Origin: an uncultured archaeon
GTDB lineage: Archaea; Asgardarchaeota; Lokiarchaeia; Sigyniarchaeales; SOKP01
Direction of reading: 5' to 3'
DNA length: 51,009 bases
Assembly: GCA_964632315.1 (NCBI GenBank)
Contig: CAZWEM010000034.1
Location: 1-51,009 of the forward strand
In this document: positions 19,387 through 43,348 of the stretch, piece by piece
Layout: every line of letters begins with the position of its first letter
Position numbering within the stretch: position 1 is the first letter of the stretch
Translations under genes and position numbers: made by a program
The notes under the pieces: generated by a model
What the model was told of the DNA's origin: nothing
What the model saw: only the letters and a program-made list of their open reading frames with translations
Databases searched by the model: none

Positions 19387-21609
19387 ATTTTACGGCAAGT
19401 TTATATTTTAAAAGATGGAAATCTCATCTATTATCGCCACTTTGGCAAAGCATTGAAAAAGGAAATGTTTGATTCGATAATTGATGATTTATTGGTAGAT
19501 GCTTTTGGAAAAAGTGGGAATAAAATTGACTATCATGATTATTATAAATATAGAATATCCTTTACCACTCAAGATGAGTTAAATCTAATCTTTATTTTTG
19601 TCACAGGGTTAACAGACAACTTTGATAATATTAAAAAAGAGTTATTTAAATGTAAGAAAGAATTTCTCAATCTATTTGAAGATATTTTACTCCATAAATA
19701 TGATTCTAAAACGTTTGAAGTATTTGATCCTACGATTGATTCAATACATAGAAACCTACGTCCTAAAATTTCTTTAGTTGGATTTTCTGGGGTAGGTAAA
19801 ACTACAATTACTCGTTTAATCAAAGCTGAAGAAATCCCAATGCAACACATCCCAACAATTACAGGAGACATCGCAACAATTAGAATTGGCAAGCTTTATT
19901 TTCATCTTTGGGATTTTGCAGGACAAGAACAATTTAGTTATTTATGGAACAATTTTATTAAAGGGAGTGACGCAGTTTTATTAATTACTGATTCGTCATT
20001 AGAAAACATTGAAAAAAGCAAATTTTTCTTGGAGCTTATTAAGGAACAAGCAGCACAGGCTCACACTGCGATAATCGCAAACAAACAAGATCTAGCTGAT
20101 GCAATGAAGCCAGAACAAGTTGAAAAAATCCTGGGATTAAAAACTTATTCCATGATCGCAAAAGAATCAAAAAATCGAGATAAAATGATTCAAATTATTG
20201 CTGATATTTTAGAAATGAGTGCAGAAGTTTCACCATTACTTAAACCACTTTTAGAAAGAGACACGTTGATAGAGAAGGCGACAAACAGCTTGGAGAATGC
20301 TGAGTTTGCTGAAGCAGCTGGTTTATTCGAAAAAATTAGTGATCTATGCATAGAATTAGGAGATGATTCTTTAGGTAGAGAATTTTTTCAAAAGGCTCAA
20401 AAAATTAAGGCGATGCTCGAGAAAACCACCAAACCAGTCCAAGTACCATCAGAGCCAGAAAAAGTGCCTCCACCCGTAGAGAAAGTTAAAAAAGCTCCAA
20501 CACCAATGCCTCCTCCAATAAAAACTGATAAGAAACCAATAGTCCAAGATCTCCCTCCTCAAACTACTAAAAAGCCAGAAGTGCCTTCAAGTCCTCCTTC
20601 TATTCCCAAGGAGCCCGTGAAAACGATTTCTACGGATAATGTAAAAAAACCTACACTTCCAAGCACTCCTGAACCATCGTTCCAGTCACCTCCTCCACCA
20701 CCGCCCCCTTCTTTAAAAAAACCAGAACTTGCATCTGTTCCTGCTACAAATAAGGAGTTAAAGGCACCTCAAGCATCTCCTCCAAAAGTCTTCTCAACTC
20801 TTGAGAGAACTTTAGATGGGTCAACTATGAAGGAAGGTGAAAAAGAGAAACTAACTTCTCCAATTAGTCAAGGAAAATCAATAAAAACCCCAGAGACCCC
20901 AAAATCTCCAGAGGATGAAAATTTAATTGATGCGAATATTAATTTGGAGCATGCTGGCCTAAAACTAAACCCAGATGACTTCATTGTTAAGCAAAGGCCT
21001 AAAACAGTAACAAATGTTCCCAAAGATGCTAAGAATAAATTAAAGACCTCCCCATACGATCTTGTCTCCAATAAACCGAACGGTCCTCCACCTTCTCCTC
21101 AACCAGTTGCTCCATTTAAGTTAATAGAAAAGGAACAAGCTGAAGTTCCAAAGACGCCTCTTATTCCACAAAATGAGCAAAATTCTGAAAAAACAGCACC
21201 ACCCCCTATCATTAAGCATCCAAAAGTAACTACAGTTCCGATTCAAAAGCACCCTGTCCCCCCACAAAGCCCAGGAACTCTACCAACACCCCCTCAACCG
21301 ATCAAACCCGCATCTGTTCCAGCAACTCCCTCTCAAGTTGAGGAACAAGAGATCAGTGCCGTTAAAGAGCAATCACCAGGTAAAGCGTCTCAAGAAATGA
21401 GTCAACAACAAAAATCGGAGTTAGAAAAGTCTCTAATGGATCTTAAAATAAAGAAAGCAAATTTATCGAAGATCGCTTTAGATTATGACATGAAGGAGTT
21501 AACTGGAGAAATTACGAGTGATGAGTTAAATGAAAAAAAGCAGAAGTTAGAAAAGATCGTAGAAAGCGTGAATAAGCAAATTGAGGATCTTGAGGGAATG
21601 TTAAAATAA
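19387..21609 (+). CDS. Multidomain small GTPase: longin-like, Arf-like GTPase, helical bundle, Pro-rich linker, C-terminal coiled coil
   Basis: G1 GFSGVGKT, G2 PT, G3 WDFAGQ, G4 NKQD. The frame is open upstream of TTG 19453 to ATT 19387, giving (M)LRQVYILKDGNLIYYRHF, a longin-type N-terminal beta-hairpin. Confidence 0.85.
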   Translation: MLRQVYILKDGNLIYYRHFGKALKKEMFDSIIDDLLVDAFGKSGNKIDYHDYYKYRISFTTQDELNLIFIFVTGLTDNFDNIKKELFKCKKEFLNLFEDILLHKYDSKTFEVFDPTIDSIHRNLRPKISLVGFSGVGKTTITRLIKAEEIPMQHIPTITGDIATIRIGKLYFHLWDFAGQEQFSYLWNNFIKGSDAVLLITDSSLENIEKSKFFLELIKEQAAQAHTAIIANKQDLADAMKPEQVEKILGLKTYSMIAKESKNRDKMIQIIADILEMSAEVSPLLKPLLERDTLIEKATNSLENAEFAEAAGLFEKISDLCIELGDDSLGREFFQKAQKIKAMLEKTTKPVQVPSEPEKVPPPVEKVKKAPTPMPPPIKTDKKPIVQDLPPQTTKKPEVPSSPPSIPKEPVKTISTDNVKKPTLPSTPEPSFQSPPPPPPPSLKKPELASVPATNKELKAPQASPPKVFSTLERTLDGSTMKEGEKEKLTSPISQGKSIKTPETPKSPEDENLIDANINLEHAGLKLNPDDFIVKQRPKTVTNVPKDAKNKLKTSPYDLVSNKPNGPPPSPQPVAPFKLIEKEQAEVPKTPLIPQNEQNSEKTAPPPIIKHPKVTTVPIQKHPVPPQSPGTLPTPPQPIKPASVPATPSQVEEQEISAVKEQSPGKASQEMSQQQKSELEKSLMDLKIKKANLSKIALDYDMKELTGEITSDELNEKKQKLEKIVESVNKQIEDLEGMLK

Positions 21610-28211: not shown

Positions 28212-29036
28212 TTAATATTCAATCTCTTTTCCACAGCGAGGACAATACTTTTCTACTCGTTTGAGTTTGTAACCACACCAAGCACAATATGAAACTACAT
28301 CTCTATTACTTAAAGATTCATATCTATACTTAAGTTTAGGGATCTCTTCGGTATGGTTTTTGAAATGACTCCTTGATACACTAAGTATTATTATAATAAT
28401 CCCCATAAATATCGACATAATAATAAACATCAACACAATTGGATTAAATAGATATGGTAATCCATCATCACTCGATGTGGGATTATCATCTGGAGGTTCT
28501 GATGTTGTCGAGTCAGAGGAAGGATAGAACTCAAGCTGATAAGATACTTTAATTGTTGTTTGATTGGGCTCAAGATTGACGAATACTAAATACATTGGAG
28601 ATCCCGTCTTGAAATAATAGCCCATACAATAATGAGCTGTATCGAAGTATACTAGATTTTTGAAGGGATATACCTTTAGGATTTGTTCAAGATTACCCGT
28701 GCGATTATAATAATCTCTAAGAAGATCGTAATTATTACCGGACATGACCCGATATAAAATATCAACGTATTTACTATTGTTACTTAAATCATAAGATTTA
28801 AAATTAAATTTAAGATTCATGTTCTTGACACCTCCTACTCCAAAATATTCATTATAACTTAGTTGGACTGTCCCGCTCTTGGAAGATGAAGAACCACTAG
28901 TGTTTAATTGAGATCTATTATTTTTGGTATCAAAAGAGGAGAAATTTATAAAATAAAATGAGAAAGGTATTAAGAATCCTAAGAAAACTATAATTAGAAA
29001 TGATCTCCTTAATGCTTTCTTCATTTTTAAACCCAT
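28212..29036 (-). CDS. Membrane protein: extracellular beta-rich domain, TM, cytoplasmic zinc ribbon
   Basis: N-terminal signal anchor, S/T/P/D linker, TM helix, C-terminal CAWCG...YCPRCG. Confidence 0.75.
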   Translation of the reverse strand: MGLKMKKALRRSFLIIVFLGFLIPFSFYFINFSSFDTKNNRSQLNTSGSSSSKSGTVQLSYNEYFGVGGVKNMNLKFNFKSYDLSNNSKYVDILYRVMSGNNYDLLRDYYNRTGNLEQILKVYPFKNLVYFDTAHYCMGYYFKTGSPMYLVFVNLEPNQTTIKVSYQLEFYPSSDSTTSEPPDDNPTSSDDGLPYLFNPIVLMFIIMSIFMGIIIIILSVSRSHFKNHTEEIPKLKYRYESLSNRDVVSYCAWCGYKLKRVEKYCPRCGKEIEY

Positions 29037-29180
29037 ATGATAGTTGTTACTGAATTGATTCTTATGATTTGCTCCAAAAGATCATAGATAAGAAACTATA
29101 AAAATATTTGTTCTAAAAGTTTGTATAAAACTAAAAAAAATCATAAAAAGGAGAGTTTTCATTTTGGGGAATCAAGATAA

Positions 29181-29846
29181 CTAAGCTTCGACCGATATTT
29201 CACTTGATTCCGAAAAAGGTAGTTTCACCATTAGTTTGGTAGCGACCAAAGTAAGGCGATGCCCCAAGTGTCTCGCTAAGTTCAATTCATTCTCACTGGG
29301 CTTCCTTTCACCATTTTTACCTGCAATAGTTGAAGCTCCATAGGGAGAACCACCTGTAATCTGATCCATTCTCCTTTGCTCATCAAAAGAGTAAGGTAAT
29401 CCAACAAAAATCAAACCGTGGTGCAATAATGTGATTAAAGTCGTAATAATGGTAGTTTCTTGACCACCGTGTTGAGTTGCTGTACTTGTAAATACTGAAA
29501 CTGGTTTTCCAATGAGAGTACCCTTCATCCAATCTCCGCCAGTTTGATCCCAAAAATTTCTCATTTGCGCTGTCATATTTCCATATCGTGTAGGAGTTCC
29601 TACAATTATTCCATCAATGCCCTCTAAATCATTACGAGGATCCGCAATTGGCACCTCTTTCATGAGATTTTTAGCCTTTCTTACATTTTCATCCCAATAT
29701 TTTTCTGGCATGAGTTCTTCAACTGTCTTTATAATTGGTATTCCTCCTGCTTCTCTTACACCTTCTGCTACAGCTTTAGCCATTGTAAAGATATGTCCGT
29801 ACATGGAATAAAATAGAATCAGAATTTTCGGATGTGCTCTGCTTAT
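29181..29846 (-). CDS. wrbA: NAD(P)H:quinone oxidoreductase WrbA (flavodoxin-like)
   Basis: YSMYGH, GTPTRYGNM, FTSTATQHGGQE, GGSPYGAS. The ORF-track GTG at 29855 lies inside the GAGGTGA RBS; ATA 29846 proposed as start. Confidence 0.93.
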   Translation of the reverse strand: MSRAHPKILILFYSMYGHIFTMAKAVAEGVREAGGIPIIKTVEELMPEKYWDENVRKAKNLMKEVPIADPRNDLEGIDGIIVGTPTRYGNMTAQMRNFWDQTGGDWMKGTLIGKPVSVFTSTATQHGGQETTIITTLITLLHHGLIFVGLPYSFDEQRRMDQITGGSPYGASTIAGKNGERKPSENELNLARHLGHRLTLVATKLMVKLPFSESSEISVEA

Positions 29847-30095
29847 AAAAATCACCTCTTCATTTACTATATATTATTAATAATTAATCTGAGATTACTC
29901 ATTTCTTAAGAAGTTTAATTTCCCTTGAACAATTTCTTATTAAAAAATCAGTAATCGTCTCGTTTCACTATATCTAGGTGAAATTACTAATATATACCTC
30001 GTTATTATAGTTAAAATTCGTTTTCAAAGTTTTGCTTAATTTCAATATGCTTTTATTCGATAAAAAAGCAACCTAATCTCCCTTTTTCCAAGTCT

Positions 30096-30977
30096 TTATG
30101 TGTTTAAAGGCCATTCATGCAATGATTTAATTAAATTCATAATTGATAAATCTCCATTAGTTAACTTTCCTATTGCTGTTTCTCTACCAAAAGTCTTTCT
30201 AAGGATCTTCTTTAAAATTTTTGGTTGATCATATCCTTCCTCAGAAAATTTTAAATAGAGACCATGTACTCTTACATGAAGTTCTTGTATCTCTTCAATT
30301 TTTTGTTCTATAATCTCTCGCCCATAAACACCATGTCCGCTGATAAATACTTTAAGATCGCTGAATTTTTTAGTATATTCAAGCAAATTTTTCATGGACT
30401 TTATAATTTCAGAAAGATTTTCTTGAATATCGCTATTATGACCAAATAACATCTTATATCGCGGTTGAATGGCATCAGATACAAAAGCCCATTGTTGGGA
30501 TTTTTCTACTAATGCGATGAGTTCAGGGGCATGACCTGGCATTGGAAATATCTCAAATGTGAATTTATGAACAGAAGATTTTAAATGATTTGGTACTTCT
30601 TTGGCAATAACTGGTTTTCTTTTCTCACCCCATGCTAGTTGGCGATATTGAGGATAATTTGATTCATTTTTTAGAATGGGAATTGCTTCTTTATGGGCAT
30701 AGATAGGAATATTGAATTCTGAATTAAGCAAATGAGCCCCTCCGGAATGGTCTTCGTGAGAATGAGTTATTATGCATTGTATTATTCTTTGCTGTTTAAA
30801 TAGTGATTTTATGAAGGCTTTTAAGTCATTCACGCTTGCGGGAGCTCCAGAATCAATTAAAATTCCATCAACAAAATAACAAGATGTGAAAAATGGACTT
30901 GGGATTAATTTATTGTCAGAAGCCCATTTCCATTCTAAAATCTTCCCATCTTCATACGTATTTAATTGAATTACCAA
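30096..30977 (-). CDS. Metallo-beta-lactamase fold hydrolase
   Basis: LIDSG, THSHEDHSGG, PGH, SD, SGHG. GGGAGG RBS precedes TTG. Confidence 0.9.
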   Translation of the reverse strand: MVIQLNTYEDGKILEWKWASDNKLIPSPFFTSCYFVDGILIDSGAPASVNDLKAFIKSLFKQQRIIQCIITHSHEDHSGGAHLLNSEFNIPIYAHKEAIPILKNESNYPQYRQLAWGEKRKPVIAKEVPNHLKSSVHKFTFEIFPMPGHAPELIALVEKSQQWAFVSDAIQPRYKMLFGHNSDIQENLSEIIKSMKNLLEYTKKFSDLKVFISGHGVYGREIIEQKIEEIQELHVRVHGLYLKFSEEGYDQPKILKKILRKTFGRETAIGKLTNGDLSIMNLIKSLHEWPLNT

Positions 30978-31018: not shown

Positions 31019-32968
31019 CTATCTTTTTGGAATTTCAAGATATTCAGGTAAAGAAGGGAAATTCTCAAGCTTTAAATGAGGAAAGTACATGGCCTCTGCG
31101 TATTCCCTTTGAAAGTTCTCTTGAACGGCGATTTCTACATATTTAATTTTCTTTAACAACTCTTGCGTCTTCTGTCGTAACTTTGTATTTATCAAGCAAT
31201 GTTGTGCACCCATACCTGCGGCATTTCCAATTTGATAGATTTTTTCATCAGAGATATCAGGAATCATCCCAATGAATTTTGCATTCTTTTTATCAATGTA
31301 ATTGCCAAATGCTCCTGCTAAAAAAATTTGATGGATTTTATGATGTTTTTCTCTCGTGCGATTTAAAAAATTAAGGATTAAATTCGTTCCCGAATAAAAC
31401 GCTCCTTTTGCCATTTGAATTTCTCTAATATCTTTTTGCGATATGACTATGGGTTTTCCAGAAGCTGTATCTTCTTTGGGGGCTAATATGAATTGAAAAT
31501 TTTTCTCTTTTTGTATAAATCTTTCATGGTCTATAAATTCCTTGTTGAAACGTCCACTTCGAGTAATAATCTTAGACCGTAGCATTTCGGCAACAGCATC
31601 AATCAAACCAGAACCGCAGATTCCCATTGGCTTTTTATCGTTAATTGTTGTATACTCAACATAAAAGGTATCGGGATCTATTTTCACAGAGTCAATTGCT
31701 CCTGCTGCTGCTCGCATTCCATTTGAGATATGAGCCCCTTCTAAAGCAGACCCTGCAGCACAAGAACCTGTTATTAATACATCTCTATTTCCAATAATGA
31801 TTTCACCATTAGTTCCTATATCTATGGCAAGTGTTAATTCTTTTTCTTTATCAATTTCAGAAGAAAGAATTACTCCTACCGTATCTGCTCCAACAAAGCC
31901 CGCTATCAAGGGTAGTACATAAGTGTTACCGTTTCGAGCCATATTTAACCCTAAGGAGTGAGAATCAAAATTTAGTCCCGTTTGAATAGCTGGAACATAT
32001 GGACTTAAACCAATATAGCTTGGATTGATTCCTAAAAAAAGATGATGCATGACAGAATTACCAACGATGGTAGCTTCATAGATATTTGAAATTGAAACTT
32101 TTGTTTCTTTACTGGTTTTTTCAATTATTTTGTTTAGTGCATCAATTACTAATTTGTTTAAAGTTTCTAGTCCCTTGGGGGTGTCTCTTGCATAAGTGAT
32201 CCTGGTGACAACATCCTCTCCAAAAGCAGTTTGGGGGTTGAGTGTTGAAGAAACAGAATAAGTTTTACCATCATTAAGATTCATTAAATACCCCACTATG
32301 GTTGTTGTTCCTATATCAAAGGCAATTCCATAGTTATCTTGAGAAGTATCACCCGATTCAATATCAATAATCGTTTCTTTTTCTTTAAAAGTCAAAGTTA
32401 AATCATGATCCTTATGCCTAAGAATATCGGGTAATCTCTTTAGGGCATCATATTCAATCTGTATTGGTGTTCTTCCCATTGGTTGATAAGATCTCAATAT
32501 TCTTTCAAAATCGGGTACAGGATCATTCAATGAAGGTTTTTTTACATTTACATAGAACTTTTTTATGTTAGGAAGAAGCTTTATTCTTTTTTCTACTCCC
32601 GAGGTTAGTATCTTGAAATCTTCAATTAGAATCTCGTCTGGCAAAAAGATTCGAATTTCTAAGGGTTTATTATTCGATTTTTCAATTTTTTTTGGATCTA
32701 ATTTTACTTGGCAAGCTAATCTCCAACCATCTTCTATTTCAGTTTTAGTTAACTTTTCCAACTCCGAGTTTGATGGATTATTGAGATGCTGGGATCCTTT
32801 TTGAATTAAAACCTTACATTTTCCACACGTTCCTTTTCCCCCACATAGAGAGCTAATTCTCACTCCTGCGTGAGAGAGTGCGTCATAAATTGATAAATCA
32901 TCTGCATATAAGATCCTTCTGGAGATTGGTTCGAAATCTAAAATTATATTCCTATTATTTTGAGTCAT
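31019..32968 (-). CDS. RACo/ASKHA-type ATP-dependent reductive activator of corrinoid proteins (DUF4445) with N-terminal [2Fe-2S] domain
   Basis: CGGKGTCGKC...RLACQ; DIGTTT; FGEDV.TR; GFVGAD; DIGTNGE; CAAG.ALEG; GICGSG; LAGAFG; GNAA..GA. Confidence 0.93.
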   Translation of the reverse strand: MTQNNRNIILDFEPISRRILYADDLSIYDALSHAGVRISSLCGGKGTCGKCKVLIQKGSQHLNNPSNSELEKLTKTEIEDGWRLACQVKLDPKKIEKSNNKPLEIRIFLPDEILIEDFKILTSGVEKRIKLLPNIKKFYVNVKKPSLNDPVPDFERILRSYQPMGRTPIQIEYDALKRLPDILRHKDHDLTLTFKEKETIIDIESGDTSQDNYGIAFDIGTTTIVGYLMNLNDGKTYSVSSTLNPQTAFGEDVVTRITYARDTPKGLETLNKLVIDALNKIIEKTSKETKVSISNIYEATIVGNSVMHHLFLGINPSYIGLSPYVPAIQTGLNFDSHSLGLNMARNGNTYVLPLIAGFVGADTVGVILSSEIDKEKELTLAIDIGTNGEIIIGNRDVLITGSCAAGSALEGAHISNGMRAAAGAIDSVKIDPDTFYVEYTTINDKKPMGICGSGLIDAVAEMLRSKIITRSGRFNKEFIDHERFIQKEKNFQFILAPKEDTASGKPIVISQKDIREIQMAKGAFYSGTNLILNFLNRTREKHHKIHQIFLAGAFGNYIDKKNAKFIGMIPDISDEKIYQIGNAAGMGAQHCLINTKLRQKTQELLKKIKYVEIAVQENFQREYAEAMYFPHLKLENFPSLPEYLEIPKR

Positions 32969-33140
32969 GAGCTTGAAATCCGGAGATCTATTTTTTTAAA
33001 AAAGATTTGAAATGAGATACTGTTTAATTTTTAAAAAATATTATTAATCTATAAAATTTTCTTAATAAAATAGAAAGAGCATTTTTTAGAATGCAATATC
33101 TTCTATTATTATAAGAATAATCCAATTGGTTAATAAAATC

Positions 33141-36100
33141 ATGGAAAGAAATGAAAGTACAGCTCAAGAGGCTTTGAAATATTTAGATAATGCCCAAATA
33201 TTAGAAGAAAACGGGAAGCTAGAAGAAGCAATCGAAAATTACTTAACAGCTGCTGATTTTTTGAAAAAAAGTGGTTTCGCGGTTACAAGAGTAAATGATA
33301 TTTACGAGAGGGTTCAAGAATTAAAAGATTTTATTAGTAAGGAAAAAACATTAAGGCAAGCTCAGCTTGGTGCTCAATTAGAACAATTGCAAGAAAGAGC
33401 ATTTTCACTTTTAGACGCTGCTAATAAATTTGAAATTAGAGGTCAACTCAACGAAGCTATTGGGCAATATAATTCTGCCATTAATTTACTAGTTAACGCT
33501 GGATGGTCTGATATGCAATTAGAGAATTTGAGAGAAAAGGTGAATTCTCTTACTCTAAAACATGCTAAGAGCCAACAACAAAGCACCCAAAACATTGAAG
33601 GGGCGGAAACACAATTATCTCAGGCCCAAGTTGTTGGAGCATTTGGTAAGAAAAAAGACGCTGTAAAGGCTGAGGAACTACGTAAATTTTCAGAAGCTAA
33701 AGCCAAAGAAGAGAAAATCCAAAGTGATGCTTTCATTTACATTGATAACGCAAAATTTTATGAGCAAGATAGAAAATATGATAAAGCTATCGAGGCTTAT
33801 AAAAATGCAATTAATTTATTAAATTCTATAGGATGGCATAGTCAAACAAGTCAACTAGAATCAATTGTAGCCAAATTGGAAATAGATAAACGGAATTATG
33901 ATTCATTCAAGGAATCAAAGAAAGTTCGTAGTGGTGGAATTGAATATATTGAAGACTCTACTACAGAAAAAGAGAAAGAATTTCAAAAATCAGTAAAAAT
34001 TATTGAAGAACAGAAGGTAAATGAAGAGAAAATTCAATCGGAGGCTTTCAACCTTATTGATGAAGGGAAAAGCATGGAAAAAGAGCAAAATTATGATGAA
34101 GCTTTGAAGAAGTTCAGCGCAGCAATAAATTTATTTAATTCGATTGGATGGGATTCTTACATCCAGCCTGTAAGAAATTTAATCAAAGATATTAATGAAA
34201 AAGTTGCTCAAGAAGATAAGTTCAGAACTTTGAAGGAAAAGAGAGAAGTTGAATTAAAAAAAGTACAAGATTCCATTTATTTAAAAGAACAAGACGAAGT
34301 TCACAAAGAAACGAAAGAAATGGAAGAAAAACGAAAACTATTTGAGAAGAAAAGGGAACATGATTTACAAAAGGAAAAGGAACTTTTAGAGTTAATCGAA
34401 GAAGCAGATAAAATCGTCAAAAATGAGGATTTTGATGGAGCTATCACTAAATATCGGGAAGCTTTAAATCTAATAGGAAACTTGGGGCCTGGTTGGGAAT
34501 CATATAAAAATATGATTAACACAACCATCGATAACATAAAGAACCTTAAAGAAAAAAAATTATCTAGGGAAATCGAAACACAAAAGAAATTGGAGGAGCA
34601 AAATAAGCGAGACATGGAATTTCAAAAGCAAATGAATGAATTACTTAATCGAGAGCGTTCTCGCTTGAAAAAGGAAGAAGTTTCCATGCAAGCAAAAGAA
34701 GAATTATTCAAAAAAAGAGAACAAGGTAAAAAAGAGGCTTTTGAAATTTTGGAAAAAGCCCAAAATTATGTCAAATCTGGAGATCTAGATAATGCAATCC
34801 TCTCTTACCAAAAAGTAGCAAATAAATTTGCTGAAATACAATGGACTGATGAAATTCCAGTCATTGAAAATTCAATTCAAGAACTTCAAAAGAAAAAGGA
34901 AGAAAAAAAAGAATTAAAAAAAAGAGAGATGGAACGATCTATCCAGAAGATGAAAGAAGAGCAGGAATTTCAAGTACAAATTTTCAAGCAACTTAAATTA
35001 GAACGCAATAAGATTAAAGAAAAAGAGATTTCCATAAAAATAAAGGAGGAAGAAAAAAGTCATCAAGAACAACGGAAAAAAGGATTGTTTAGCATATTGG
35101 AACAAGCACAAGATCTTTTAATCCAAGGCGATTTTGATGATGCTATCAACAAGTATAATGAAGTCGTAAAAGTAATGGCAGAAATGCAATGGCATGACGA
35201 AATTGCACTGATACAAAATTCGATCTTAGATATCGAGAGAAAAAAGCGTGATTCACAATTACAAAAAGAAAAAGAATTAAGACAGAAAATCAAGAGAGAA
35301 CAAGAAGAACAAGAGTTTCAGAACCAAATAATTGACCAAATGCGTATACATCAAGAAAACTTAAAACAAAAGCAAATAGTAATTCGAGAAAGAGAAAAGG
35401 AGTTAGCGCACAGAGAAAAAATGAAGGGAAAAGCATTTGAATTATTGAATAAAGCTCAAGATTATTTGGCTATTACAAAATTTGATGAGGCCATTGATTT
35501 ATATCGAGATATAGCAAAAATATTTGCCCAAATTCAGTGGAAGGAGGAAATAGCATTAATTCAGCAATCAATTCAAGAGATTGAAAGAAAAAAAGTAGAA
35601 AAAGAAGAATGGAAACAAAAAACCATGCAGGATACCATAAAAAGAGAAAATGCTTACAAAGAATTTATCGATCAGATAAAACATCAAAGAGAAATTGAAC
35701 AAATTAGAATAGAAAAAGAGCTTGAATTGGTTGAGAAAAAGAAACTCCTTGATGCTGATAGTATTAAGAGACAAGATAATGCACTTAAATTGATTGAAGA
35801 AGCAGATGAGTTAATTCAACAAGAGAATTACAATCTTGCAATAATTAATTATGAAAATGCAGTGAAAATCCTAGAGGAGATTGGTTGGACAGGAGGGTAT
35901 TTGAATTTGTTACAAGAGACATTAGACACTATTAGTGCGAGGCAAAGAGAAAAGTTAGCTGAAAAGCAAAAGCAAGAAAAAATCTTAAAAGAAAAGCAAA
36001 AATCAGAAGAAGCCTTCCAAAAGAAATTGAGAGCAACAATGGAAGCAGAACAAAAACGCTTGCGATCAAAAGTAATTGAAATTCAAAAAAAGGAAGAAGT

Positions 36101-39100
36101 AAAGGTTCACGCAGAAAATCAAAAAGAAAAAGCGTTTAATTTATTAGAGGATGCTGAAAGATTACTAAATCAAAGAAATTATGAGGATTCAATAAAGCTG
36201 TATAGAGAATCGGAAATTATTTTAGCTGAAATTGAATACCCTACGGATATAATTAGAGAAATGATCCGCAAAATAGAGGTTCGAAGAAAAGAGGAAGAAC
36301 TTGCAAAAATTAAAGAGTCGGAGAAAGCCATTTTAGAGGAGAAAGAAGAAGCTGAGTTTCAAGAAAAAATTCAAAAGGTAATGCAGGAAGAGACTAAAAA
36401 ACTTCGAGATAAGCAGATAAAATTAGAAGAACAAGAAAAGCGCAAAAAATTATTAGAAGAAAGAAAGCAAGAGGCTTTTGAAATTTTAAATAAAGCAGAA
36501 GAAGAAGTCAGTATAAAAGCATACGAAAAAGCCCTTGCTTTGTATCGTAAAGCAGAGTTGATTTTAAATGAGATTCGATTTCCAACAGATTTATTAAAAG
36601 ATACAATTCGAAAGTTACAAATTAAAAAGAGCGATGAAGATCTTCTTAAGCAACAACAACTTGAACGTCAGATTGAAAAACAAAAAGAGGAAACAATTTT
36701 CCAAAATAAGATCTCGGATGGAATAAGAAGGGAAAAGAAGAGATTACGAGAAAAAGCAATGCTTTTAGAGAAAAAAGAGGAAATGACGAAAATTCATGAA
36801 AAATTACAAAATGAAGCTTTTAAGTTATTAGATTTAGCTCAAGAGATGACAGTTACGAGTGATTTAGAAGGTGCAATAAACAATTATAAGAAAGTAATGT
36901 CAATTTTTGAAGATATCGGTTGGAAGGATGAAATTCCCTTATTGAAAGAATCGATCCAAGTCTTAAGAATGAAACAAAATGAACAACAGACCTCTCAACA
37001 AAGTCAATTAGAGCAAAACCTGAAAATAGAAAAAGAAAACTCTGAATTTAACAGGATAATAGCTGAGCAGTCTCAACTTGAAAGAGAAAGATTATTAAAA
37101 CAACAAATTGAGTTAAGAGAAAGAGAAGAGGAGTTACAATTCCGAGAAAAAAGAAAAAATGAAGCCTTTATTAAAATTGATGAAGCTAATGAACTGGTTG
37201 AACTGGGCAAGTTTGAAGAAGCAAAGAGATTATATCTTGAGGTAGAAGATATCTTTGCAGAAATCCAATGGATAGATGAAATAGATATGATTCATAATTC
37301 AATAATAGAGATTGAGAAGAGAAAATGGGATAATCTTGTCAAAAAGCAAAAAGAATTGCAAGAGGATTTATATTTTGAGAAACTTGTACAAGATTTTCAA
37401 AACCAAATAGCACAAGAAACTCAAATTGAACAAGAAAAAATTAGAGAGAAAGAAGTAACGCTAAGGGAAAGAAAAGCAGAACTCAAATTGAGAGAAAATG
37501 AAAGAATTAAAGCATTTGAACTGCTTGATAAAGCAAGCAATTTGGTTGAATTGAAGAATTATGAAGAAGCTATAAGTATATATCGTGATGTTTCGCTAAA
37601 GTTTGCTCGAATCGGTTGGACTGAAGAAATTTCCGTAATAAATCAAGCAATTTATGATGTAGAGAAGAAGAGGACCGAAGCTGAATTGCTAAAACAAAGA
37701 GAGATCACAGAATCAGGTAAAAAAGAGAGAGAACGCTTACAGTTCATTAATAAGATTAAAATCGAAAGGGAGAAAGAAAAAGAAAAACTGAAGGAACAGA
37801 GAGAAAGAGTTGAAAAATTAGCAAAGCTTAAGGAATTAGGGAGTAAAAAACAAGAAATAGCATTTAAAAAGATAGAAGATGCAGATGATCTTATAAGACG
37901 TGAAGATTTTAATGAAGCAATTCAACTATATGGTCAAGCTCGTGATATCTTAAGTGAGATTGGCTGGACAGGCAGTTATATAAACCTGATCAATGAGAGC
38001 ATTGAATTTTCAAAGCTAAAAGTAATAGAAGTAGAACGTAGAAAAGAAAAAGAGAAAGCTTTAATCCAGAAACAAGCAGAAGAGCAAAAGATTTTTGAAG
38101 AAAGGTTAAAAAAGCAAGCAGTGGATGAACAAGAGAGATTGAAAAAGAAACGATTTGAAATTCAAAAAAGAGAAACGTTCACTAAATTATTGGAACAAAG
38201 AAAAGAAGAAGCTTTTAAAATAATGACACAAGCAGAATCTTTGTTGGAACAAGGATTATATGAAGAGTCATTAGGAAAATATAATGATGCTGAATTGATC
38301 CTCAGCGAAATTAATTTTCCAACAGATGCTGTACAAGAAATGGTTCAAAAAATTCGATCTAAAATTCAAGAACGAATCTTAAATGAACAAAGGGATTTGG
38401 AACTAAAAATACGAAAGGAAGAAGAAGATAAGAAATTCCTTAAGAAAGTATCAGAAGAAACACACAGAAAGGAGGAGGAGCTAAGGAAAAAGAAAGTTCA
38501 ATTAAAGAAACAAGAAGAACTTAGAGATTATATGGAAAAAAGAAAAACTGAAGCTTTTGATTTGTTAGATAACGCAGAAAGTTTAGTGAAAGAAAATGCA
38601 TATGATAGAGCTCTAGAATATTATAATAGGGCAGAAGTGATATTAAATGAAATCCAATTTCCAACTAATACTATCCGTGGTATGAGAGAAAAAGTAGCAT
38701 TTATGCAAAAGAAGAAACAGACCGCAGTATATAATGATCTCCAAACAAGGTTACGAAAGTCTCATGAAGAAAAAGAATTCCAACAGAAACTAGCAGAAGA
38801 AACCCTCAGAGAAAAACAAAGACTTGAAAATAAGAAGATCGAAGTCAGAGAAAAAGCATTTAAACAAGCAGAAATCGAAAAGCAAAAAGAAAGGGCATTT
38901 TCACTTTTAGATGATGCTAAATCCCTAATAGAAAAAGAAGATTTTGATGAAGCAATTGAGTTATATCGTAAAGCCATGCTTATTTTAAATGAGGTTCAAT
39001 TTCCTACAGGAGCTTTAGATGATATGATTAGAAAAATAATGCTGAAGAAAAAAGAGAAGGAAGAAATGGAAGAACTCGAATATCAACGTAAAGTTGATGC

Positions 39101-40163
39101 ATTTAAACGAGATAAGCAAATGGAAGTCATGATTCAAGAAAGAAAACGACAAGAAAGGGAACAAGCAGCAGCAAGAGCAGCGGCATTAAAGGAAAAAGAA
39201 AGATTGGTCCAAGAACAGATTAATTTTCGAGAAGCTGCATATTCTCTCTTAGAAGATGCCGATAAACACTTAAAAAAACAGGTTCCAGATTATGACAGAG
39301 CAATTTCACTCTACATTCAAGCCAGAAACACTTTATCTGAAAAAGTCGGATGGGAACCCGAAATCAACAATATCACCATGCTTATTAAGGATCTAGAAAA
39401 AGAAAAGAAGAATTATATTGAACGGAAGCAGTTAGAACGGGATTTAGCACTAAAAAGACAGAAAGAGTATGAAATTTTTCAAAACGAAGTAAAAAAGCGA
39501 AAGGAAGAATATGAGAAACAAAAAGCACAACAAGAACAAAAATTGCGTGATCTTTATCTTTCAAAAAGAAAGGCAGAAAAAATGAAAGAAGAGGGGTTAG
39601 CGTTAATAGACAGTGCCAAAGAATACGTAATTAACAGGGAATTTAATAAAGCATATGATGAATTTAATGATGCCATTAAAAAATTCACACAAATAGGTTG
39701 GACGGAACAGGCAAAATATATCAAAAAAGAAATAGAAAATGCTAAAGAAATAGAACAAAAGTTTAAGGATGAACGTTTAAAGTTAAAACAAGTACATGAA
39801 GACTTGTTAAGAAAGAAACAGAAGGAAGAGAGATTAATTAAAAAGAAAGAGCAAGAACTAAAATCGACTATTTCTGATGTAAGTGATCTGACTGGAGAGA
39901 TATCGGATGTAATTAAAACTAAAAAGCTGGAAATCGAAAAGAAAGAAAAAGAAAGGAAAGAAAAGATCAAACTAGATGCTAAAGATTATAGAAAAAGCAT
40001 GTCCGAAATGATACAGTTAAAGCAAGAATTGATTGAGGAAATTAAAAATTCGGAAGTAATGCTCAAAAAAGAACGAGAAAAGCATGAGATTGAAAAGGAT
40101 AAGGAAAAAGCAGAAGAAATTAAAAGAATGTTGAAGGATATATCAAAGAATAAAAAAACTTGA
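33141..40163 (+). CDS. Giant (about 2340 aa) alpha-helical repeat protein: 20 TPR/MIT-like units joined by charged coiled-coil segments
   Basis: Recurring AFxxLxxA...(Y/F)xxAIxxY...I(G/Q)W or I.(F/Y)P motif about every 115 aa, with E/K/Q/R-rich spacers. No TM or signal peptide. ORF is open from TTG 33126. Confidence 0.85.
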   Translation: MERNESTAQEALKYLDNAQILEENGKLEEAIENYLTAADFLKKSGFAVTRVNDIYERVQELKDFISKEKTLRQAQLGAQLEQLQERAFSLLDAANKFEIRGQLNEAIGQYNSAINLLVNAGWSDMQLENLREKVNSLTLKHAKSQQQSTQNIEGAETQLSQAQVVGAFGKKKDAVKAEELRKFSEAKAKEEKIQSDAFIYIDNAKFYEQDRKYDKAIEAYKNAINLLNSIGWHSQTSQLESIVAKLEIDKRNYDSFKESKKVRSGGIEYIEDSTTEKEKEFQKSVKIIEEQKVNEEKIQSEAFNLIDEGKSMEKEQNYDEALKKFSAAINLFNSIGWDSYIQPVRNLIKDINEKVAQEDKFRTLKEKREVELKKVQDSIYLKEQDEVHKETKEMEEKRKLFEKKREHDLQKEKELLELIEEADKIVKNEDFDGAITKYREALNLIGNLGPGWESYKNMINTTIDNIKNLKEKKLSREIETQKKLEEQNKRDMEFQKQMNELLNRERSRLKKEEVSMQAKEELFKKREQGKKEAFEILEKAQNYVKSGDLDNAILSYQKVANKFAEIQWTDEIPVIENSIQELQKKKEEKKELKKREMERSIQKMKEEQEFQVQIFKQLKLERNKIKEKEISIKIKEEEKSHQEQRKKGLFSILEQAQDLLIQGDFDDAINKYNEVVKVMAEMQWHDEIALIQNSILDIERKKRDSQLQKEKELRQKIKREQEEQEFQNQIIDQMRIHQENLKQKQIVIREREKELAHREKMKGKAFELLNKAQDYLAITKFDEAIDLYRDIAKIFAQIQWKEEIALIQQSIQEIERKKVEKEEWKQKTMQDTIKRENAYKEFIDQIKHQREIEQIRIEKELELVEKKKLLDADSIKRQDNALKLIEEADELIQQENYNLAIINYENAVKILEEIGWTGGYLNLLQETLDTISARQREKLAEKQKQEKILKEKQKSEEAFQKKLRATMEAEQKRLRSKVIEIQKKEEVKVHAENQKEKAFNLLEDAERLLNQRNYEDSIKLYRESEIILAEIEYPTDIIREMIRKIEVRRKEEELAKIKESEKAILEEKEEAEFQEKIQKVMQEETKKLRDKQIKLEEQEKRKKLLEERKQEAFEILNKAEEEVSIKAYEKALALYRKAELILNEIRFPTDLLKDTIRKLQIKKSDEDLLKQQQLERQIEKQKEETIFQNKISDGIRREKKRLREKAMLLEKKEEMTKIHEKLQNEAFKLLDLAQEMTVTSDLEGAINNYKKVMSIFEDIGWKDEIPLLKESIQVLRMKQNEQQTSQQSQLEQNLKIEKENSEFNRIIAEQSQLERERLLKQQIELREREEELQFREKRKNEAFIKIDEANELVELGKFEEAKRLYLEVEDIFAEIQWIDEIDMIHNSIIEIEKRKWDNLVKKQKELQEDLYFEKLVQDFQNQIAQETQIEQEKIREKEVTLRERKAELKLRENERIKAFELLDKASNLVELKNYEEAISIYRDVSLKFARIGWTEEISVINQAIYDVEKKRTEAELLKQREITESGKKERERLQFINKIKIEREKEKEKLKEQRERVEKLAKLKELGSKKQEIAFKKIEDADDLIRREDFNEAIQLYGQARDILSEIGWTGSYINLINESIEFSKLKVIEVERRKEKEKALIQKQAEEQKIFEERLKKQAVDEQERLKKKRFEIQKRETFTKLLEQRKEEAFKIMTQAESLLEQGLYEESLGKYNDAELILSEINFPTDAVQEMVQKIRSKIQERILNEQRDLELKIRKEEEDKKFLKKVSEETHRKEEELRKKKVQLKKQEELRDYMEKRKTEAFDLLDNAESLVKENAYDRALEYYNRAEVILNEIQFPTNTIRGMREKVAFMQKKKQTAVYNDLQTRLRKSHEEKEFQQKLAEETLREKQRLENKKIEVREKAFKQAEIEKQKERAFSLLDDAKSLIEKEDFDEAIELYRKAMLILNEVQFPTGALDDMIRKIMLKKKEKEEMEELEYQRKVDAFKRDKQMEVMIQERKRQEREQAAARAAALKEKERLVQEQINFREAAYSLLEDADKHLKKQVPDYDRAISLYIQARNTLSEKVGWEPEINNITMLIKDLEKEKKNYIERKQLERDLALKRQKEYEIFQNEVKKRKEEYEKQKAQQEQKLRDLYLSKRKAEKMKEEGLALIDSAKEYVINREFNKAYDEFNDAIKKFTQIGWTEQAKYIKKEIENAKEIEQKFKDERLKLKQVHEDLLRKKQKEERLIKKKEQELKSTISDVSDLTGEISDVIKTKKLEIEKKEKERKEKIKLDAKDYRKSMSEMIQLKQELIEEIKNSEVMLKKEREKHEIEKDKEKAEEIKRMLKDISKNKKT

Positions 40164-40166
40164 GTC

Positions 40167-41666
40167 TCATTTTCTCTGACGTTTCCAATATAAACTGCTA
40201 ATATAGACCAAACCTGCTATGTTAAAAATCATAACACCAAGAAGAATTAGGCTTCTTAAATCAATGATCAATATGATCTCAAACCCTCCAGAACTTTTAA
40301 CACGAGATTTTAATACCAAGTAATAATCATGAGTATCAGTTAAAAATACTCCCATCCTTTTAGATATATCGATGCTATTTATTGAATTTGATACTAATTC
40401 AGGGGTACCATCTTGATTAGGTGTCTTATCAAAAAGATATAGTTCTGCTGGAAGGGAATCTTTTTGAATTACCTCAAAAAAATAGTGATTTGGATTTAAC
40501 CGAACAGGTTGGCAAAATACACTATAATTTTCATTAAGTTCGACTTGGAATTTAGTATTTTGAGTTAACGTGAGAGGTGGATCTAATGCTGCTAAAGCCG
40601 CATATCCTTGGATTATACCCCATCCCTGACGATTGTCGCTTATAAACAAGGGATCAATTGTCCGATAAGACGAAAGAGAGATGATATTTTTTAATTCAAA
40701 AGGATTTAAGTTTGGATTTTTTTCTAACATTAATGCTGCTAATCCGGACACAAAAGGGGTTGATGCTGAAGTTCCTGAGGCATAGGCAAATGAATTGCCA
40801 GGATATGCTCCATAAATAGATACACCTGGTGCACAAACATCTGGTTTTCTATAACCCTTATATGTCGGCCCTATACTACTTTTAGAATACATTCCACCAC
40901 TATTATCCACTCCTCCAATAGTGAGAACTGATTCTGAAGACCCTGGTGCGTTAATAGTTCTAATTCCCTGATCTCCATCATTTCCAGCAGCAGCAACTAC
41001 CAAAATTCCAGCATTTACAAGTTTCTCCACAGCGGTATCTATTTGATTGATGTATTGCAAATCATTTGTAGTTGGTTTTATCCCAAAACTCATGCTCGCA
41101 ATACTGACATTATAGAGATCTTTATTATTAAGCAACCAATCTACAGCCCGTTCCAATATGGAGGGTGTAGTCACTACTTGACCACCCCCAATATCTTTAA
41201 ATATTTGCATTATCACGAATTTTACTCCTGGGGCTACTCCTTGATAAGCTGTAGAGTTACCTCCTAAAATTGAAGCCGCCCACGTGCCATGCCATAGGAC
41301 TTCTGTCGGATTTGGAGATAATCCATCAGTTGATTCACTATAAAATGCAATTATTCGTTCTGACCAATTTATCTTCCCATCATTAGTAAATACTTGATGA
41401 TTTGGGGAGATGCCTGTATCTAACACGGCAACTGTGACTCCTTTTCCAGTCAAATTACCGTTCCATAGACTGGGAGACAATCCAATAAGATCTTGGGCAT
41501 CGAAACAAACTTTCATATCATCTGAAGATCTTATCATCTCATCATGATTTACGTTTTGCGAGGGAGCATCTATTGACACAAATGTTTGCTGAGATGGTTG
41601 GAGAAAAATTATTCCTAAAAGAGGTGAGAAGATGATGAAAAATTGGATAAGATGGATTCTGTTCAA
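40167..41666 (-). CDS. Subtilisin-like S8 serine peptidase, signal peptide plus C-terminal TM anchor
   Basis: Catalytic triad VAVLDTG / HGT / GTSASTP; oxyanion AAGN; KPDVCAPG. Confidence 0.93.
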   Translation of the reverse strand: MNRIHLIQFFIIFSPLLGIIFLQPSQQTFVSIDAPSQNVNHDEMIRSSDDMKVCFDAQDLIGLSPSLWNGNLTGKGVTVAVLDTGISPNHQVFTNDGKINWSERIIAFYSESTDGLSPNPTEVLWHGTWAASILGGNSTAYQGVAPGVKFVIMQIFKDIGGGQVVTTPSILERAVDWLLNNKDLYNVSIASMSFGIKPTTNDLQYINQIDTAVEKLVNAGILVVAAAGNDGDQGIRTINAPGSSESVLTIGGVDNSGGMYSKSSIGPTYKGYRKPDVCAPGVSIYGAYPGNSFAYASGTSASTPFVSGLAALMLEKNPNLNPFELKNIISLSSYRTIDPLFISDNRQGWGIIQGYAALAALDPPLTLTQNTKFQVELNENYSVFCQPVRLNPNHYFFEVIQKDSLPAELYLFDKTPNQDGTPELVSNSINSIDISKRMGVFLTDTHDYYLVLKSRVKSSGGFEIILIIDLRSLILLGVMIFNIAGLVYISSLYWKRQRK

Positions 41667-41764
41667 TTGATATCCTTTAAGAGCGTATATTTATTTATTT
41701 TTATTTATATACTTATATTTAATTGTTTTCATTAAAATAACTAAAAAAGATTGCGGTGTTTAAA

Positions 41765-43348
41765 ATGGTAGAAAATAAAGACGAGATTTATAAATCTCGA
41801 ATGTTTGCTCGTCAACAATTGATTGAGGGATGGAATCAAGCCACTCTTGAAAATGGTTGTATAATGATTGTCGGAGTTGGTGCTCTTGGATGTGAAATTG
41901 CGAAAGATTTTGCATTGATGGGTATTGGGAAACTCATTCTGGTTGATTTAGATACGATCGAGATTTCAAATCTATCCCGACAGATGTTATTTCGCCCAGG
42001 AGATGAAGGAAAACCGAAGGCAGAGGTTGCAGCTGAGCGTATCAAAGAAATGAATCCATACTTGAAAGTTGATTTTTACTTTGAAAAATTGCAGAAGCTC
42101 CCTGTTGCTGTCTTTGAAGAAGCTGATGTAATAATTGCCGCTTTAGATAATTTTAACGCTCGAATGGATTTGAATAAATTGTGCCTAAGACTAAAGAAGC
42201 CAATGGTGGAAGGAGGAACTGTAGGATTTGAAGGTCATGTCCAAATCGTGATTCCCGAAGGATCGGGAATACAATATAAAGAAAGGGAAAATGAAGTAGA
42301 AAAAATAGTTCAAGCTAAGCTATGGGAACTTGATGATGTTGAAAATACTCAATATTACAATGCTTTGCGAGAGATCGAGGATTTAGAAGAAAAGATTGAA
42401 ACTATTAAAAAAAATAAAATTCAGCCCATTATAAATAGCGTTCGTGCTCAGGTGGAAGAGGAATTCGACAGAGTTTACGCCGAAAAAGTCTTAAATGTTA
42501 CTCCTTGTTATCGTTGTTTAGTACCTATACCTCCTGCGGATGATAAACTTGTCGCGGCATGTACTCTTAAAGGCTTACCGAGAAATAGGAATCATTGTGT
42601 TATAAAAGCAGAGGTAAATTTTGAAAAAGAAAATGGGTTTAAACCAGATATGAATTTAGATGAAGATGTTCTCAAATTAAAAGAATTAGCTCAAAAAGAA
42701 TTAGAGCAGCTACGTGAGAGAGTATTTAAGGAAAATATTCCTGAAGAAAAACTTGAAAGTCTTAGTCCTGAAGAAATTCAAAGTTGGAAAGAAAACATAG
42801 AAAATACTTTTGGTCCTGATTTTAAATTTGAAGAGATGGAAAATATCTTAGGTAATAAAATAGCTGCCGTACAGACTGTTAGCTCGGTCATTGCTAGTAT
42901 TCAATCACAAGAGGCATTGAAGCTATTGTTTAGAGTTAATGGTCGAGATATTGGAGGGCCCATGGATCCTCCCTATGTGAATTATAATGGGGTATATGGT
43001 TTATTTGATCATCTCGATATATTAAAAAGGGACGATTGTTTAGCATGTGGGAAAATTGAAGGAGAAGAAAATGTTCAATTAGTAGTGCCATTTGATGCGG
43101 ATATCGGATACATTTTCAAGGCAATGAGGATCATAGGCTATAATTTAGATCCTATATTGTGGATGATAACTAATCCCGTATCTAAAGAGATCTATTGGAA
43201 TCCTTACATGCCTTCCATGAAAGATAGTAGCATTCTTTTAAATTCATTGGACGTGAAAAATAATGACATCTTATCCCTCACCCCCCTTGGAAAAGCAAAA
43301 ATAGAATCTGAAATCAAGAAATTTAATTTAATAATCACTTACATGTAA
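41765..43348 (+). CDS. Ubiquitin-like protein activating enzyme E1 (ThiF/UBA family, UBA2/UBA3-like)
   Basis: F.RQ, GVGALG.E, DLDTIEISNLSRQMLF, ALDN..AR; zinc pairs CYRC and CLAC; catalytic ACTLKGLPRNRNHC; GNKIAAV..V.SVIA. Confidence 0.88.
   Translation: MVENKDEIYKSRMFARQQLIEGWNQATLENGCIMIVGVGALGCEIAKDFALMGIGKLILVDLDTIEISNLSRQMLFRPGDEGKPKAEVAAERIKEMNPYLKVDFYFEKLQKLPVAVFEEADVIIAALDNFNARMDLNKLCLRLKKPMVEGGTVGFEGHVQIVIPEGSGIQYKERENEVEKIVQAKLWELDDVENTQYYNALREIEDLEEKIETIKKNKIQPIINSVRAQVEEEFDRVYAEKVLNVTPCYRCLVPIPPADDKLVAACTLKGLPRNRNHCVIKAEVNFEKENGFKPDMNLDEDVLKLKELAQKELEQLRERVFKENIPEEKLESLSPEEIQSWKENIENTFGPDFKFEEMENILGNKIAAVQTVSSVIASIQSQEALKLLFRVNGRDIGGPMDPPYVNYNGVYGLFDHLDILKRDDCLACGKIEGEENVQLVVPFDADIGYIFKAMRIIGYNLDPILWMITNPVSKEIYWNPYMPSMKDSSILLNSLDVKNNDILSLTPLGKAKIESEIKKFNLIITYM

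Follow-up and report, generated by a model that had tools for sequence, protein, structure and literature searches.

A giant repeat protein of Lokiarchaeia predicted to form a segmented rod of MIT-like bundles, a putative cytoskeletal scaffold

MIT domains (PF04212), known from Vps4/CdvC, katanin p60, MITD1, NRBF2/Atg38 and USP8, are three-helix bundles of about 60 residues with a TPR-like hairpin of the form G-x-Y-D-x-A-I-x-x-Y. In the MIT proteins known so far, including the tandem cases calpain-7 and Vta1/LIP5, one or two such domains stand beside a catalytic or other domain; in NRBF2 a long helix also follows the MIT domain. Here we describe a gene for a giant protein, called the rod below, in a stretch of 51,009 nucleotides (the window) of contig CAZWEM010000034.1 from assembly GCA_964632315.1, an uncultured archaeon of the Lokiarchaeia (Sigyniarchaeales; SOKP01). 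The rod is predicted to carry a knob with the same size, bundle and hairpin as an MIT domain but, in contrast to the known MIT proteins, rods of this family would consist of 7 to 25 knobs set periodically on continuous helices, with nothing else beside them.

The gene (Table 1) lies exactly at 33141-40163 (+), where a first-pass annotation made from the letters alone had placed it. Its open reading frame spans 33126-40163 (+), with an in-frame TTG at 33126 and an ATG at 33141; the ATG yields the 2,340-residue form held as the protein database entry (P0002), and unit starts and residue ranges given here are numbered on the translation from the TTG. Searched with a hidden Markov model trained on 10 seed units, the protein shows exactly 20 units, each recovered at an E-value between 1e-9 and 1e-28, far beyond chance, so the earlier count of 20 units of about 115 residues stands. 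They begin at residues 13, 86, 196, 301, 415, 532, 648, 764, 880, 997, 1111, 1225, 1341, 1459, 1574, 1690, 1804, 1918, 2033 and 2151, and units 5 to 19 align almost gap-free across the full 115 residues. In a profile of 978 units the bundle consensus is A7 F8 .. L11 .. A14 ... Y23 D24. A26 I27 .. Y30 ... I40. W/F/Y42 and the linker consensus E80 E81 .. F84 (98%) Q85 .. I88 (97%), which recovers both motifs quoted on first reading (AFxxLxxA...AIxxY...(G/Q)W or (F/Y)P in the bundle, EEE.EFQ..I in the linker).

The protein has zero Cys, 0.5% Pro and 1.9% Gly, and a Pfam scan returns MIT (77.6 bits) and TPR families only. The first-pass annotation had seen no transmembrane segment, signal peptide or enzyme domain, and this agrees with the Pfam result, with a Kyte-Doolittle maximum of 0.77 over 19 residues, which leaves no transmembrane segment, and with a hydrophilic N-terminus. 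An NCBIfam scan of the protein gave nothing meaningful, a PDB sequence search with two units gave no match at E<=1, and matches in the ESM Atlas were generic TPR or hypothetical clusters only. No tandem repeat was detected in the gene at the DNA level, which points to an old and diverged array rather than a recent expansion. Over 34001-40000 of the window the GC skew is 0.26-0.31 and the AT skew 0.35-0.39, limited to the rod gene; this purine-rich coding strand is explained by the load of GAA, AAA and AAG codons for Glu and Lys and is not a replication signal.

Two AlphaFold2 (AF2) models agree on the fold. The first covers units 6-9 (residues 532-950) and was computed from an alignment that combined 15 orthologous with 5 paralogous frames of four units each (mean predicted local distance difference test score, pLDDT, 85; predicted template modelling score, pTM, 0.31); the second, of units 19-20 and the C-terminal tail, has the same architecture at pLDDT 86, with 93-96 in the linker. 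In each unit a helix 1 of 19 residues and a helix 2 of 17 are followed by one unbroken helix of about 91-93 residues, in which helix 3 runs through the charged linker into the first helix of the following unit. Of each helix only about 20 residues take part in the bundle, and in these monomer models some 52 helical residues between one bundle and the next stay unbundled. In the C-terminal tail an extended helix 3 of unit 20 is followed by a low-confidence break (around S-D-V-S-D-L-T-G) and a last helix some 85 residues long. An arrangement of bundles along a rod had been proposed before and appears in both models; the charged helices, then taken for separate spacers, are instead continuous with helix 3 and the next helix 1. 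In these models the protein is a rod, not beads on a flexible string, and its connectivity is spectrin-like. Helix 3 of one unit and helix 1 of the next begin 72 residues apart; at a rise of 0.15 nm per residue this gives an estimated knob spacing of about 11 nm, and the whole rod, if straight, would reach about 0.2 micrometres. We picture it as a cytoplasmic all-alpha protein that would carry 20 MIT-like knobs on its unbroken helices.

The modelled bundles have the asymmetric three-helix form, about 70 residues long, of MIT-type bundles, and structural searches point to this fold. The low-rmsd (root-mean-square deviation) matches in Foldseek are local and to MIT domains only (NRBF2, Sulfolobus Vps4, VPS4A/B and MITD1, at probability 0.96-1.0). 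An all-against-all structure search gives the katanin p60 N-domain (Z 10.3, 2.0 A), MITD1 (Z 9.3, 1.7 A), calpain-7 (Z 9.1, 1.2 A), NRBF2 (Z 9.0, 1.3 A) and Sulfolobus Vps4 (Z 9.0, 1.6 A); together with USP8, the MIT matches span Z 8.9-10.3 and 1.2-2.4 A over 60-67 residues, that is, nearly whole MIT chains; as the search tool warns, values of Z below about 13 are common for helical bundles. A compact TPR solenoid, named at the outset as the outcome that would overturn a rod, is not what is seen: TPR proteins superpose at 45-120 A as against 1.2-2.4 A for MIT, the TPR consensus matches only the 21-residue hairpin of helices 1 and 2, and each 116-residue unit has one such hairpin, capped by helix 3 and followed by the helix of about 91-93 residues, with no stacking. 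Spectrin was considered likewise, since its rods (repeats of about 106 residues) share with this one a repeat of about 110 residues, three-helix bundles and a last helix continuous into the next repeat. It was rejected as an identification: no spectrin family appears in the Pfam scan and no spectrin sequence or structure among the hits, the bundle helices have 17-19 residues where those of a spectrin repeat have about 30 and make up all of it, and the remainder of the long helix, about 52 residues, is unbundled.

At the level of sequence the likeness to MIT is partial. The Pfam MIT score of the whole protein is summed over 8 stretches and exceeds the 30-bit cut-off, yet every single stretch stays below 30 bits, the best at 24.5, and only head units 1-4 are detected; the head (units 1-5) is the most MIT-like part by Pfam. 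The bundle profile matches the MIT domain of VPS4A across positions 5-54 (E 0.003) and that of SKD1 over the same positions, and an hhalign comparison of the unit with the MIT domain of the source genome's own Vps4 aligns 28 columns at 61% probability. Because the sequence matches are partial and no single unit passes the Pfam cut-off, 'MIT-like' is the right label, and 'MIT family member with known function' is not.

This bears on a first alternative, in which the rod is a multivalent reader of ESCRT-III: its knobs would keep the canonical activity of MIT domains, which take up MIM motifs of ESCRT-III tails in the groove of helices 2/3 or 1/3, and would bind the MIM-type helices at the C-termini of ESCRT-III subunits, and the rod would template, cross-link or measure ESCRT-III, or be recruited or disassembled by Vps4 through a MIM1-like C-terminus of its own. 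The fold matches to MIT domains of Vps4/CdvC, MITD1 and calpain-7 and the summed Pfam score speak for it, as do a Vps4 (52-bit MIT) and two ESCRT-III genes in the source genome, the latter ending in helices with Leu/Ile at i, i+4, i+7, and MIM1-like motifs have been described in Asgard archaea (PMC7240154). The C-terminus of the rod resembles those helices, with the same hydrophobic pattern after acidic residues. Outside the repeats, nothing in the whole family is better conserved than these final 20 or so residues, a short amphipathic helix with a polybasic end, for which the variant D-N-L-K-R-M-I-K-E-A-G-K, then oligo-Lys, also occurs; from its sequence this motif could serve in membrane targeting or in MIM1-like docking. 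Intramolecular docking of the motif on a knob was considered and found unsupported, for AF2 leaves it undocked at a terminal pLDDT of 50-69. The same result counts against an ESCRT-III reader, together with the sub-threshold unit scores, the short alignment with the genome's own Vps4, the fact that the most conserved bundle residues are core positions, and the location of the ESCRT locus on another contig, unlinked to the rod; we consider this alternative unlikely. A MIM1-like reading of linker positions 95-107 was dropped as well: the match is partial (Leu at 0 and +7, basic residues at +3 and +8, the hydrophobic residue at +5 and not +4), and such a match easily arises by chance in helices rich in Glu, Lys and Leu.

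The spacing of units in the family is extremely constant. About 140 database clusters match the rod, all of them from Loki-type Asgard metagenome-assembled genomes and all labelled hypothetical or TPR protein. Measured between the invariant Tyr of successive units in 114 complete proteins, the distance from unit 1 to unit 2 is 76 residues in every one, and the core spacings are exactly 114, 116 or 117 residues in 1,206 of 1,208 cases. The linkers after units 2 and 3 are variable, with 93 to 120 residues and Gly/Ser/Gln breaks. An identical pattern of spacings is kept in 44 proteins of 18 units, 43 of 14 units and 14 of 16 with 20 units, at 33-57% identity. The differences between 114, 116 and 117 sit in the loop between helices 2 and 3, which comes in three types (FP, QW/GW and GWTG), so that the long connecting helix has a constant length. 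Each residue inserted into a continuous helix rotates the part downstream by about 100 degrees. The spacing conservation thus argues that both the axial and the rotational register of the knobs are fixed and under selection, as far as this can be read from sequences.

Length, by comparison, changes in whole units only (7, 9, 14, 18, 20 and 25). The common classes have 14 units (47 clusters), 18 (44) and 20 (16), with single cases of 16, 17, 19, 21 and 25; the 20-unit form occurs in one subclade of its genus (G016, G001 and G268), and most congeners have 14 units. In the window's rod, units 6-11 and 12-17 pair in order, unit for unit, at 35-41% identity, as two copies of a six-unit block of types A A A B C C (spacings 116, 116, 116, 117, 114 and 114 in copy 1), and the 14-unit orthologs map onto the rod as head 1-5, one such block and tail 18-20. 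By this sequence comparison the 20-unit rod is a 14-unit form with one duplicated six-unit block; the 18- and 25-unit forms derive from other block duplications. Together, spacing fixed to the residue and length changes by whole units are difficult to account for unless the protein has a structural role that depends on register.

The linkers, first described as charged spacers, turned out not to be passive. Their composition is 53% charged, 23% large hydrophobic and 1% Gly plus Pro, and the hydrophobic residues fall on conserved positions of the 978-unit profile: 65, 71, 75, 84 (the Phe noted above), 88, 92, 99, 106 (95%) and 113, of which 92, 99, 106 and 113 form an i+7 series. Positions 68 and 85 carry a conserved Gln and the junction an invariant Glu, and the frequency of the top residue among orthologs, 0.54-0.61, is nearly that of the bundles (0.59-0.70). 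By helical-wheel arithmetic, the stripe in the first half of the linker shares its phase with the core-facing side of helix 3, and the stripe in the second half with that of helix 1 in the following unit. Judged from sequence, these stripes look like docking or pairing surfaces. Long charged helices free of Gly and Pro, with i/i+4 charge pairs, in rods of 0.1-0.3 micrometre are shared with ER/K helices and with coiled-coil tethers (golgins, EEA1, ROCK), and a small GTPase gene adjoins the rod gene; ER/K helices differ from the rod, which has the conserved hydrophobic stripe and a folded knob every 116 residues.

Such stripes could also pair between chains, in parallel, antiparallel or staggered fashion, so that the rod would assemble with itself into two-stranded ropes, filaments or a lattice in the manner of spectrin or intermediate filaments, with the knobs as structural nodes and not binding sites. 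The hydrophobic content of the linkers is near coiled-coil density, the i+7 stripe, the nearly invariant F84 and I88 and the conserved Gln would suit pairing, the stripe keeps in phase with the core-facing sides of the bundle helices, and a lattice needs the fixed register that is seen. Against this, much of the linker has one hydrophobic position per heptad, with charged residues at the partner 'd' positions, and the excess of opposite-charge i/i+3,4 pairs (0.37 per residue versus 0.28 in shuffles) is of the kind that single alpha-helices show. The rods of Lokiarchaeum ossiferum considered below are moreover of middling abundance, below the level of a bulk skeleton. On balance a self-assembling skeleton appears improbable.

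The distribution of the family is narrow but complete. With a four-unit query at E<=1e-5, all 68 genomes of the window's family match, as do, weakly, 6 of 7 genomes of a sister family; 226 genomes that represent 28 further families of the phylum give no match. A profile search finds shorter relatives in 13 of 14 genomes of the sister family. The earlier suggestion of a possible Asgard structural protein is narrowed by this unit search of Asgard genomes to one order of Lokiarchaeia. Orthologs at the same syntenic position range from 899 residues (7 units, family f3) and about 1,078 (genus g11) up to 2,927, and a related-locus search with a Lokiarchaeaceae-type rod recovered only itself. The source genome has diverged paralogs of 1,575 and 362 residues. 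The former, L055 (G000:C12:41527-46251), has some 7-9 weak rod units in its C-terminal half, and its N-terminal 900 or so residues have no Pfam match. A literature search for a description or characterisation of the family found no paper, so that it appears undescribed, in keeping with what had been supposed at the start. The family is thus present in every searched genome of one Lokiarchaeial family, with shorter relatives across the order, including a genome that matches the cultured L. ossiferum, where they are expressed.

It is this cultured relative that offers an indirect hint of a partner. The single-contig genome of 6,035,313 bp (G333) encodes rods of 2,274 and 1,077 residues. The longer (L075; G333:C1:4704823 onward) has 19 units, eleven of them consecutive at exactly 127 residues and flanked by 116-residue units; 127 residues is a second fixed period, 11 residues, or about three helical turns, longer. 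The monoisotopic masses of the two proteins, 270.50 and 124.58 kDa, equal those of GNAMCCOK_04068 (270.5) and GNAMCCOK_04434 (124.58), and the gene numbers fit the genome positions. The C-terminus of the 1,077-residue rod, E-I-D-A-F-K-R-M-I-Q-A-A-V-K-K-K, shares the family motif and its gene has a divergent Ras neighbour; for these two reasons GNAMCCOK_04434 is taken, from sequence and position, as the positional ortholog of the window gene, and GNAMCCOK_04068 as a paralog. Both proteins are listed in a Lokiactin co-immunoprecipitation (co-IP) from L. ossiferum (bioRxiv 10.1101/2025.11.30.690169, published as PMC13716822; Supplementary Table 2, sheet 'CoIP Lokiactin'), of which the rows relevant here were used. 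Relative to IgG, GNAMCCOK_04068 has a log2 ratio of 2.00 (adjusted p 0.0015; 82 peptides, 325 spectra) and GNAMCCOK_04434 of 2.04 (adjusted p 0.017; 21 peptides, unquantified in every IgG replicate), and both occur at middling abundance in the whole proteome (10.1101/2025.11.30.690169). Both rods are thus enriched about 4-fold, and among the non-contaminant rows examined they rank about 35th and 38th by ratio. Several other large proteins are also significantly enriched and go undiscussed in that paper, among them GNAMCCOK_00864 (101 kDa), 03049 (118 kDa), 02871 (95 kDa) and 03758 (94 kDa).

The reading that we favour, with a probability somewhat short of even, is that of a register-dependent, length-quantised cytoskeletal scaffold or ruler, putatively on Lokiactin, that would work with a GTPase and be anchored by its C-terminus. 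Within the Lokiarchaeial cytoskeleton the rod would offer docking sites at regular intervals or serve as a ruler, most likely together with Lokiactin filaments; linker stripes and knob faces may be its repeated contact sites, and its length would evolve through gain or loss of whole units. The amphipathic, polybasic C-terminus may be the anchoring end, and the adjoining Ras-like GTPase a likely regulator or recruiter. A cytoplasmic scaffold, ruler or tether was also what the first-pass annotation had in mind: its rod architecture holds, and the function is still conjecture, now joined by the enrichment of relatives with Lokiactin. The repeat anatomy, the predicted segmented-rod fold, the conservation of spacing, the changes of length by whole units and the restricted but universal distribution are well supported; we infer how rigid and how large the rod is, what it binds and what the GTPase and the C-terminus do. 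If the link to actin is true, the rod would be the first scaffold or ruler of this giant, periodic kind in a prokaryotic actin cytoskeleton, and MIT-like bundles would have a structural use beyond the ESCRT pathway.

A more specific form of this idea, a ruler of the nebulin or titin type, we hold doubtful. The rod would follow Lokiactin filaments or bundles and touch them once in every 116-residue unit, and the lineage-specific number of units (7 to 25) would determine some dimension of the cell, for instance the length of a protrusion or of a bundle segment, with the Ras-like GTPase in control. Nebulin and titin are likewise giant proteins of simple modules, with super-repeats, a strict module size and length variation by whole modules; the association with actin is only hinted at for the rod, and its role on actin or as a ruler is putative. 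The rod also has no homology to them, and its 116-residue helical units differ from the 35-residue repeats of nebulin and from Ig/Fn3 modules.

Several points weigh against the favoured scaffold on Lokiactin. The cells used for the co-IP were formaldehyde-crosslinked, and about 40 non-contaminant proteins in the rows examined reach log2>=2 among some 570 tested, a total back-calculated from the adjusted p-values; other long proteins are also enriched, the 270-kDa rod is present in the IgG control too, and the authors mention neither rod. L. ossiferum is a member of a sister family, and identity between its rods and that of the window is only about 22-24%. AF2 monomer models tend to draw amphipathic helices straight, so that straightness and the 11 nm are estimates from helix lengths, and pTM values are 0.31-0.41. 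Gene order kept within a single order may in part be a matter of common descent. Finally, a strict commensurability, in which one unit of 116 residues equals four actin subunits, was rejected as a general rule: it cannot apply to every rod, given the 127-residue period of the L. ossiferum paralog.

The neighbouring GTPase supports another alternative, by analogy with long tethers such as golgins, EEA1 and the coiled-coil ruler of ROCK: the Ras/Rab-like GTPase would recruit one end of the rod, the C-terminus would bind a membrane, and the rod would set the distance between two structures, with actin only an indirect neighbour. The GTPase ortholog is 66-88% identical across the order and usually divergently transcribed from the rod (orthologs at G333:C1:5145324-5145830, G026:C1:3351256-3351762, G336:C1:1535792-1536301 and G024:C22:51273-51776), and it is a specific ortholog out of 8-11 Ras paralogs per genome at E<=1e-30. 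Four of the 5 genomes of family f2 have it next to a rod gene (66-71% identity), without RACo and E1 there, and this neighbour stays while the rods of f2 have diverged to about 22% identity; a specific Ras ortholog thus accompanies the rod in three families. Conservation of head and tail with a middle that varies by whole units would suit a tether, and the C-terminal amphipathic helix with oligo-Lys resembles membrane-targeting sequences. A pure spacer, though, needs no conserved stripes, no unit-specific conserved residues and no exact rotational register, Pfam recognises no GTPase-binding domain in the rod, the neighbouring GTPase does not figure among the co-IP rows examined, and a C-terminal motif so close to invariant would be expected of protein recognition more than of lipid binding. 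We consider a tether of this kind unlikely.

Table 1. Features of the rod gene and its neighbourhood in the window (f1, f2 and f3 are families; f1 includes the source genome)
Feature	Position	Strand	Remarks
Rod protein gene	33141..40163	+	ATG start; 2,340 aa; 280.3 kDa; pI 6.2
Head, units 1-5	33162..34718	+	aa 13-531 (TTG numbering)
Super-repeat copy 1, units 6-11	34719..36797	+	Types QW, QW, QW, GWTG, FP, FP
Super-repeat copy 2, units 12-17	36798..38876	+	Extra six-unit block; 14-unit to 20-unit form
Tail units 18-20	38877..39779	+	Orthologous to units 12-14 of 14-unit forms
C-terminal helical tail	39780..40160	+	Predicted (AF2 model)
Conserved C-terminal motif	40095..40160	+	D-E-I-K-(K/R)-M-L-K-D-I-S-K, then oligo-Lys
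Ras-family small GTPase, 175 aa	26934..27461	-	Ortholog adjoins rod gene in f1, f2 and f3
RACo-type reductive activase	31019..32968	-	Divergent from rod; syntenic neighbour in f1 and f3
Subtilase S8	40167..41666	-	Between rod and E1 in 3/7 f1 loci and the f3 locus
ThiF/E1-like	41756..43348	+	Conserved downstream neighbour of rod gene

Seven loci from four genera, and family f3 as well, share the order Ras-like GTPase, RACo, rod, (subtilase), E1-like, HAD (Table 1); since the whole block is syntenic, most of this order is uninformative. The RACo gene probably has no functional link to the rod. The E1-like gene is directly adjacent and co-directional in four of the seven f1 loci and in g11, but the notion of an operon with the rod is weakened by its opposite strand in f3 and by the intervening subtilase, which is present in the source genome, G016 and G170 and not in the four other loci. 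Between the Ras-like GTPase and RACo, at 28212-30977 (-), lie three genes, for a Zn-ribbon protein, a WrbA-like flavodoxin and a metallo-beta-lactamase-fold protein, an insert absent from the six other loci compared.

Elsewhere in the window, a bundle similar to those of the rod had been proposed to follow a GTPase domain at about 20260-20415. A 28-column match of 6.2 bits to the bundle profile bears this out only weakly, and Pfam finds no domain there at E<=0.001. In the source genome, L057 (G000:C4:87700-90045), a protein of 781 residues, combines an N-terminal SIR2_2 domain with a long TPR_12/TPR_10 array, an architecture typical of NAD-depleting defence or signalling proteins.

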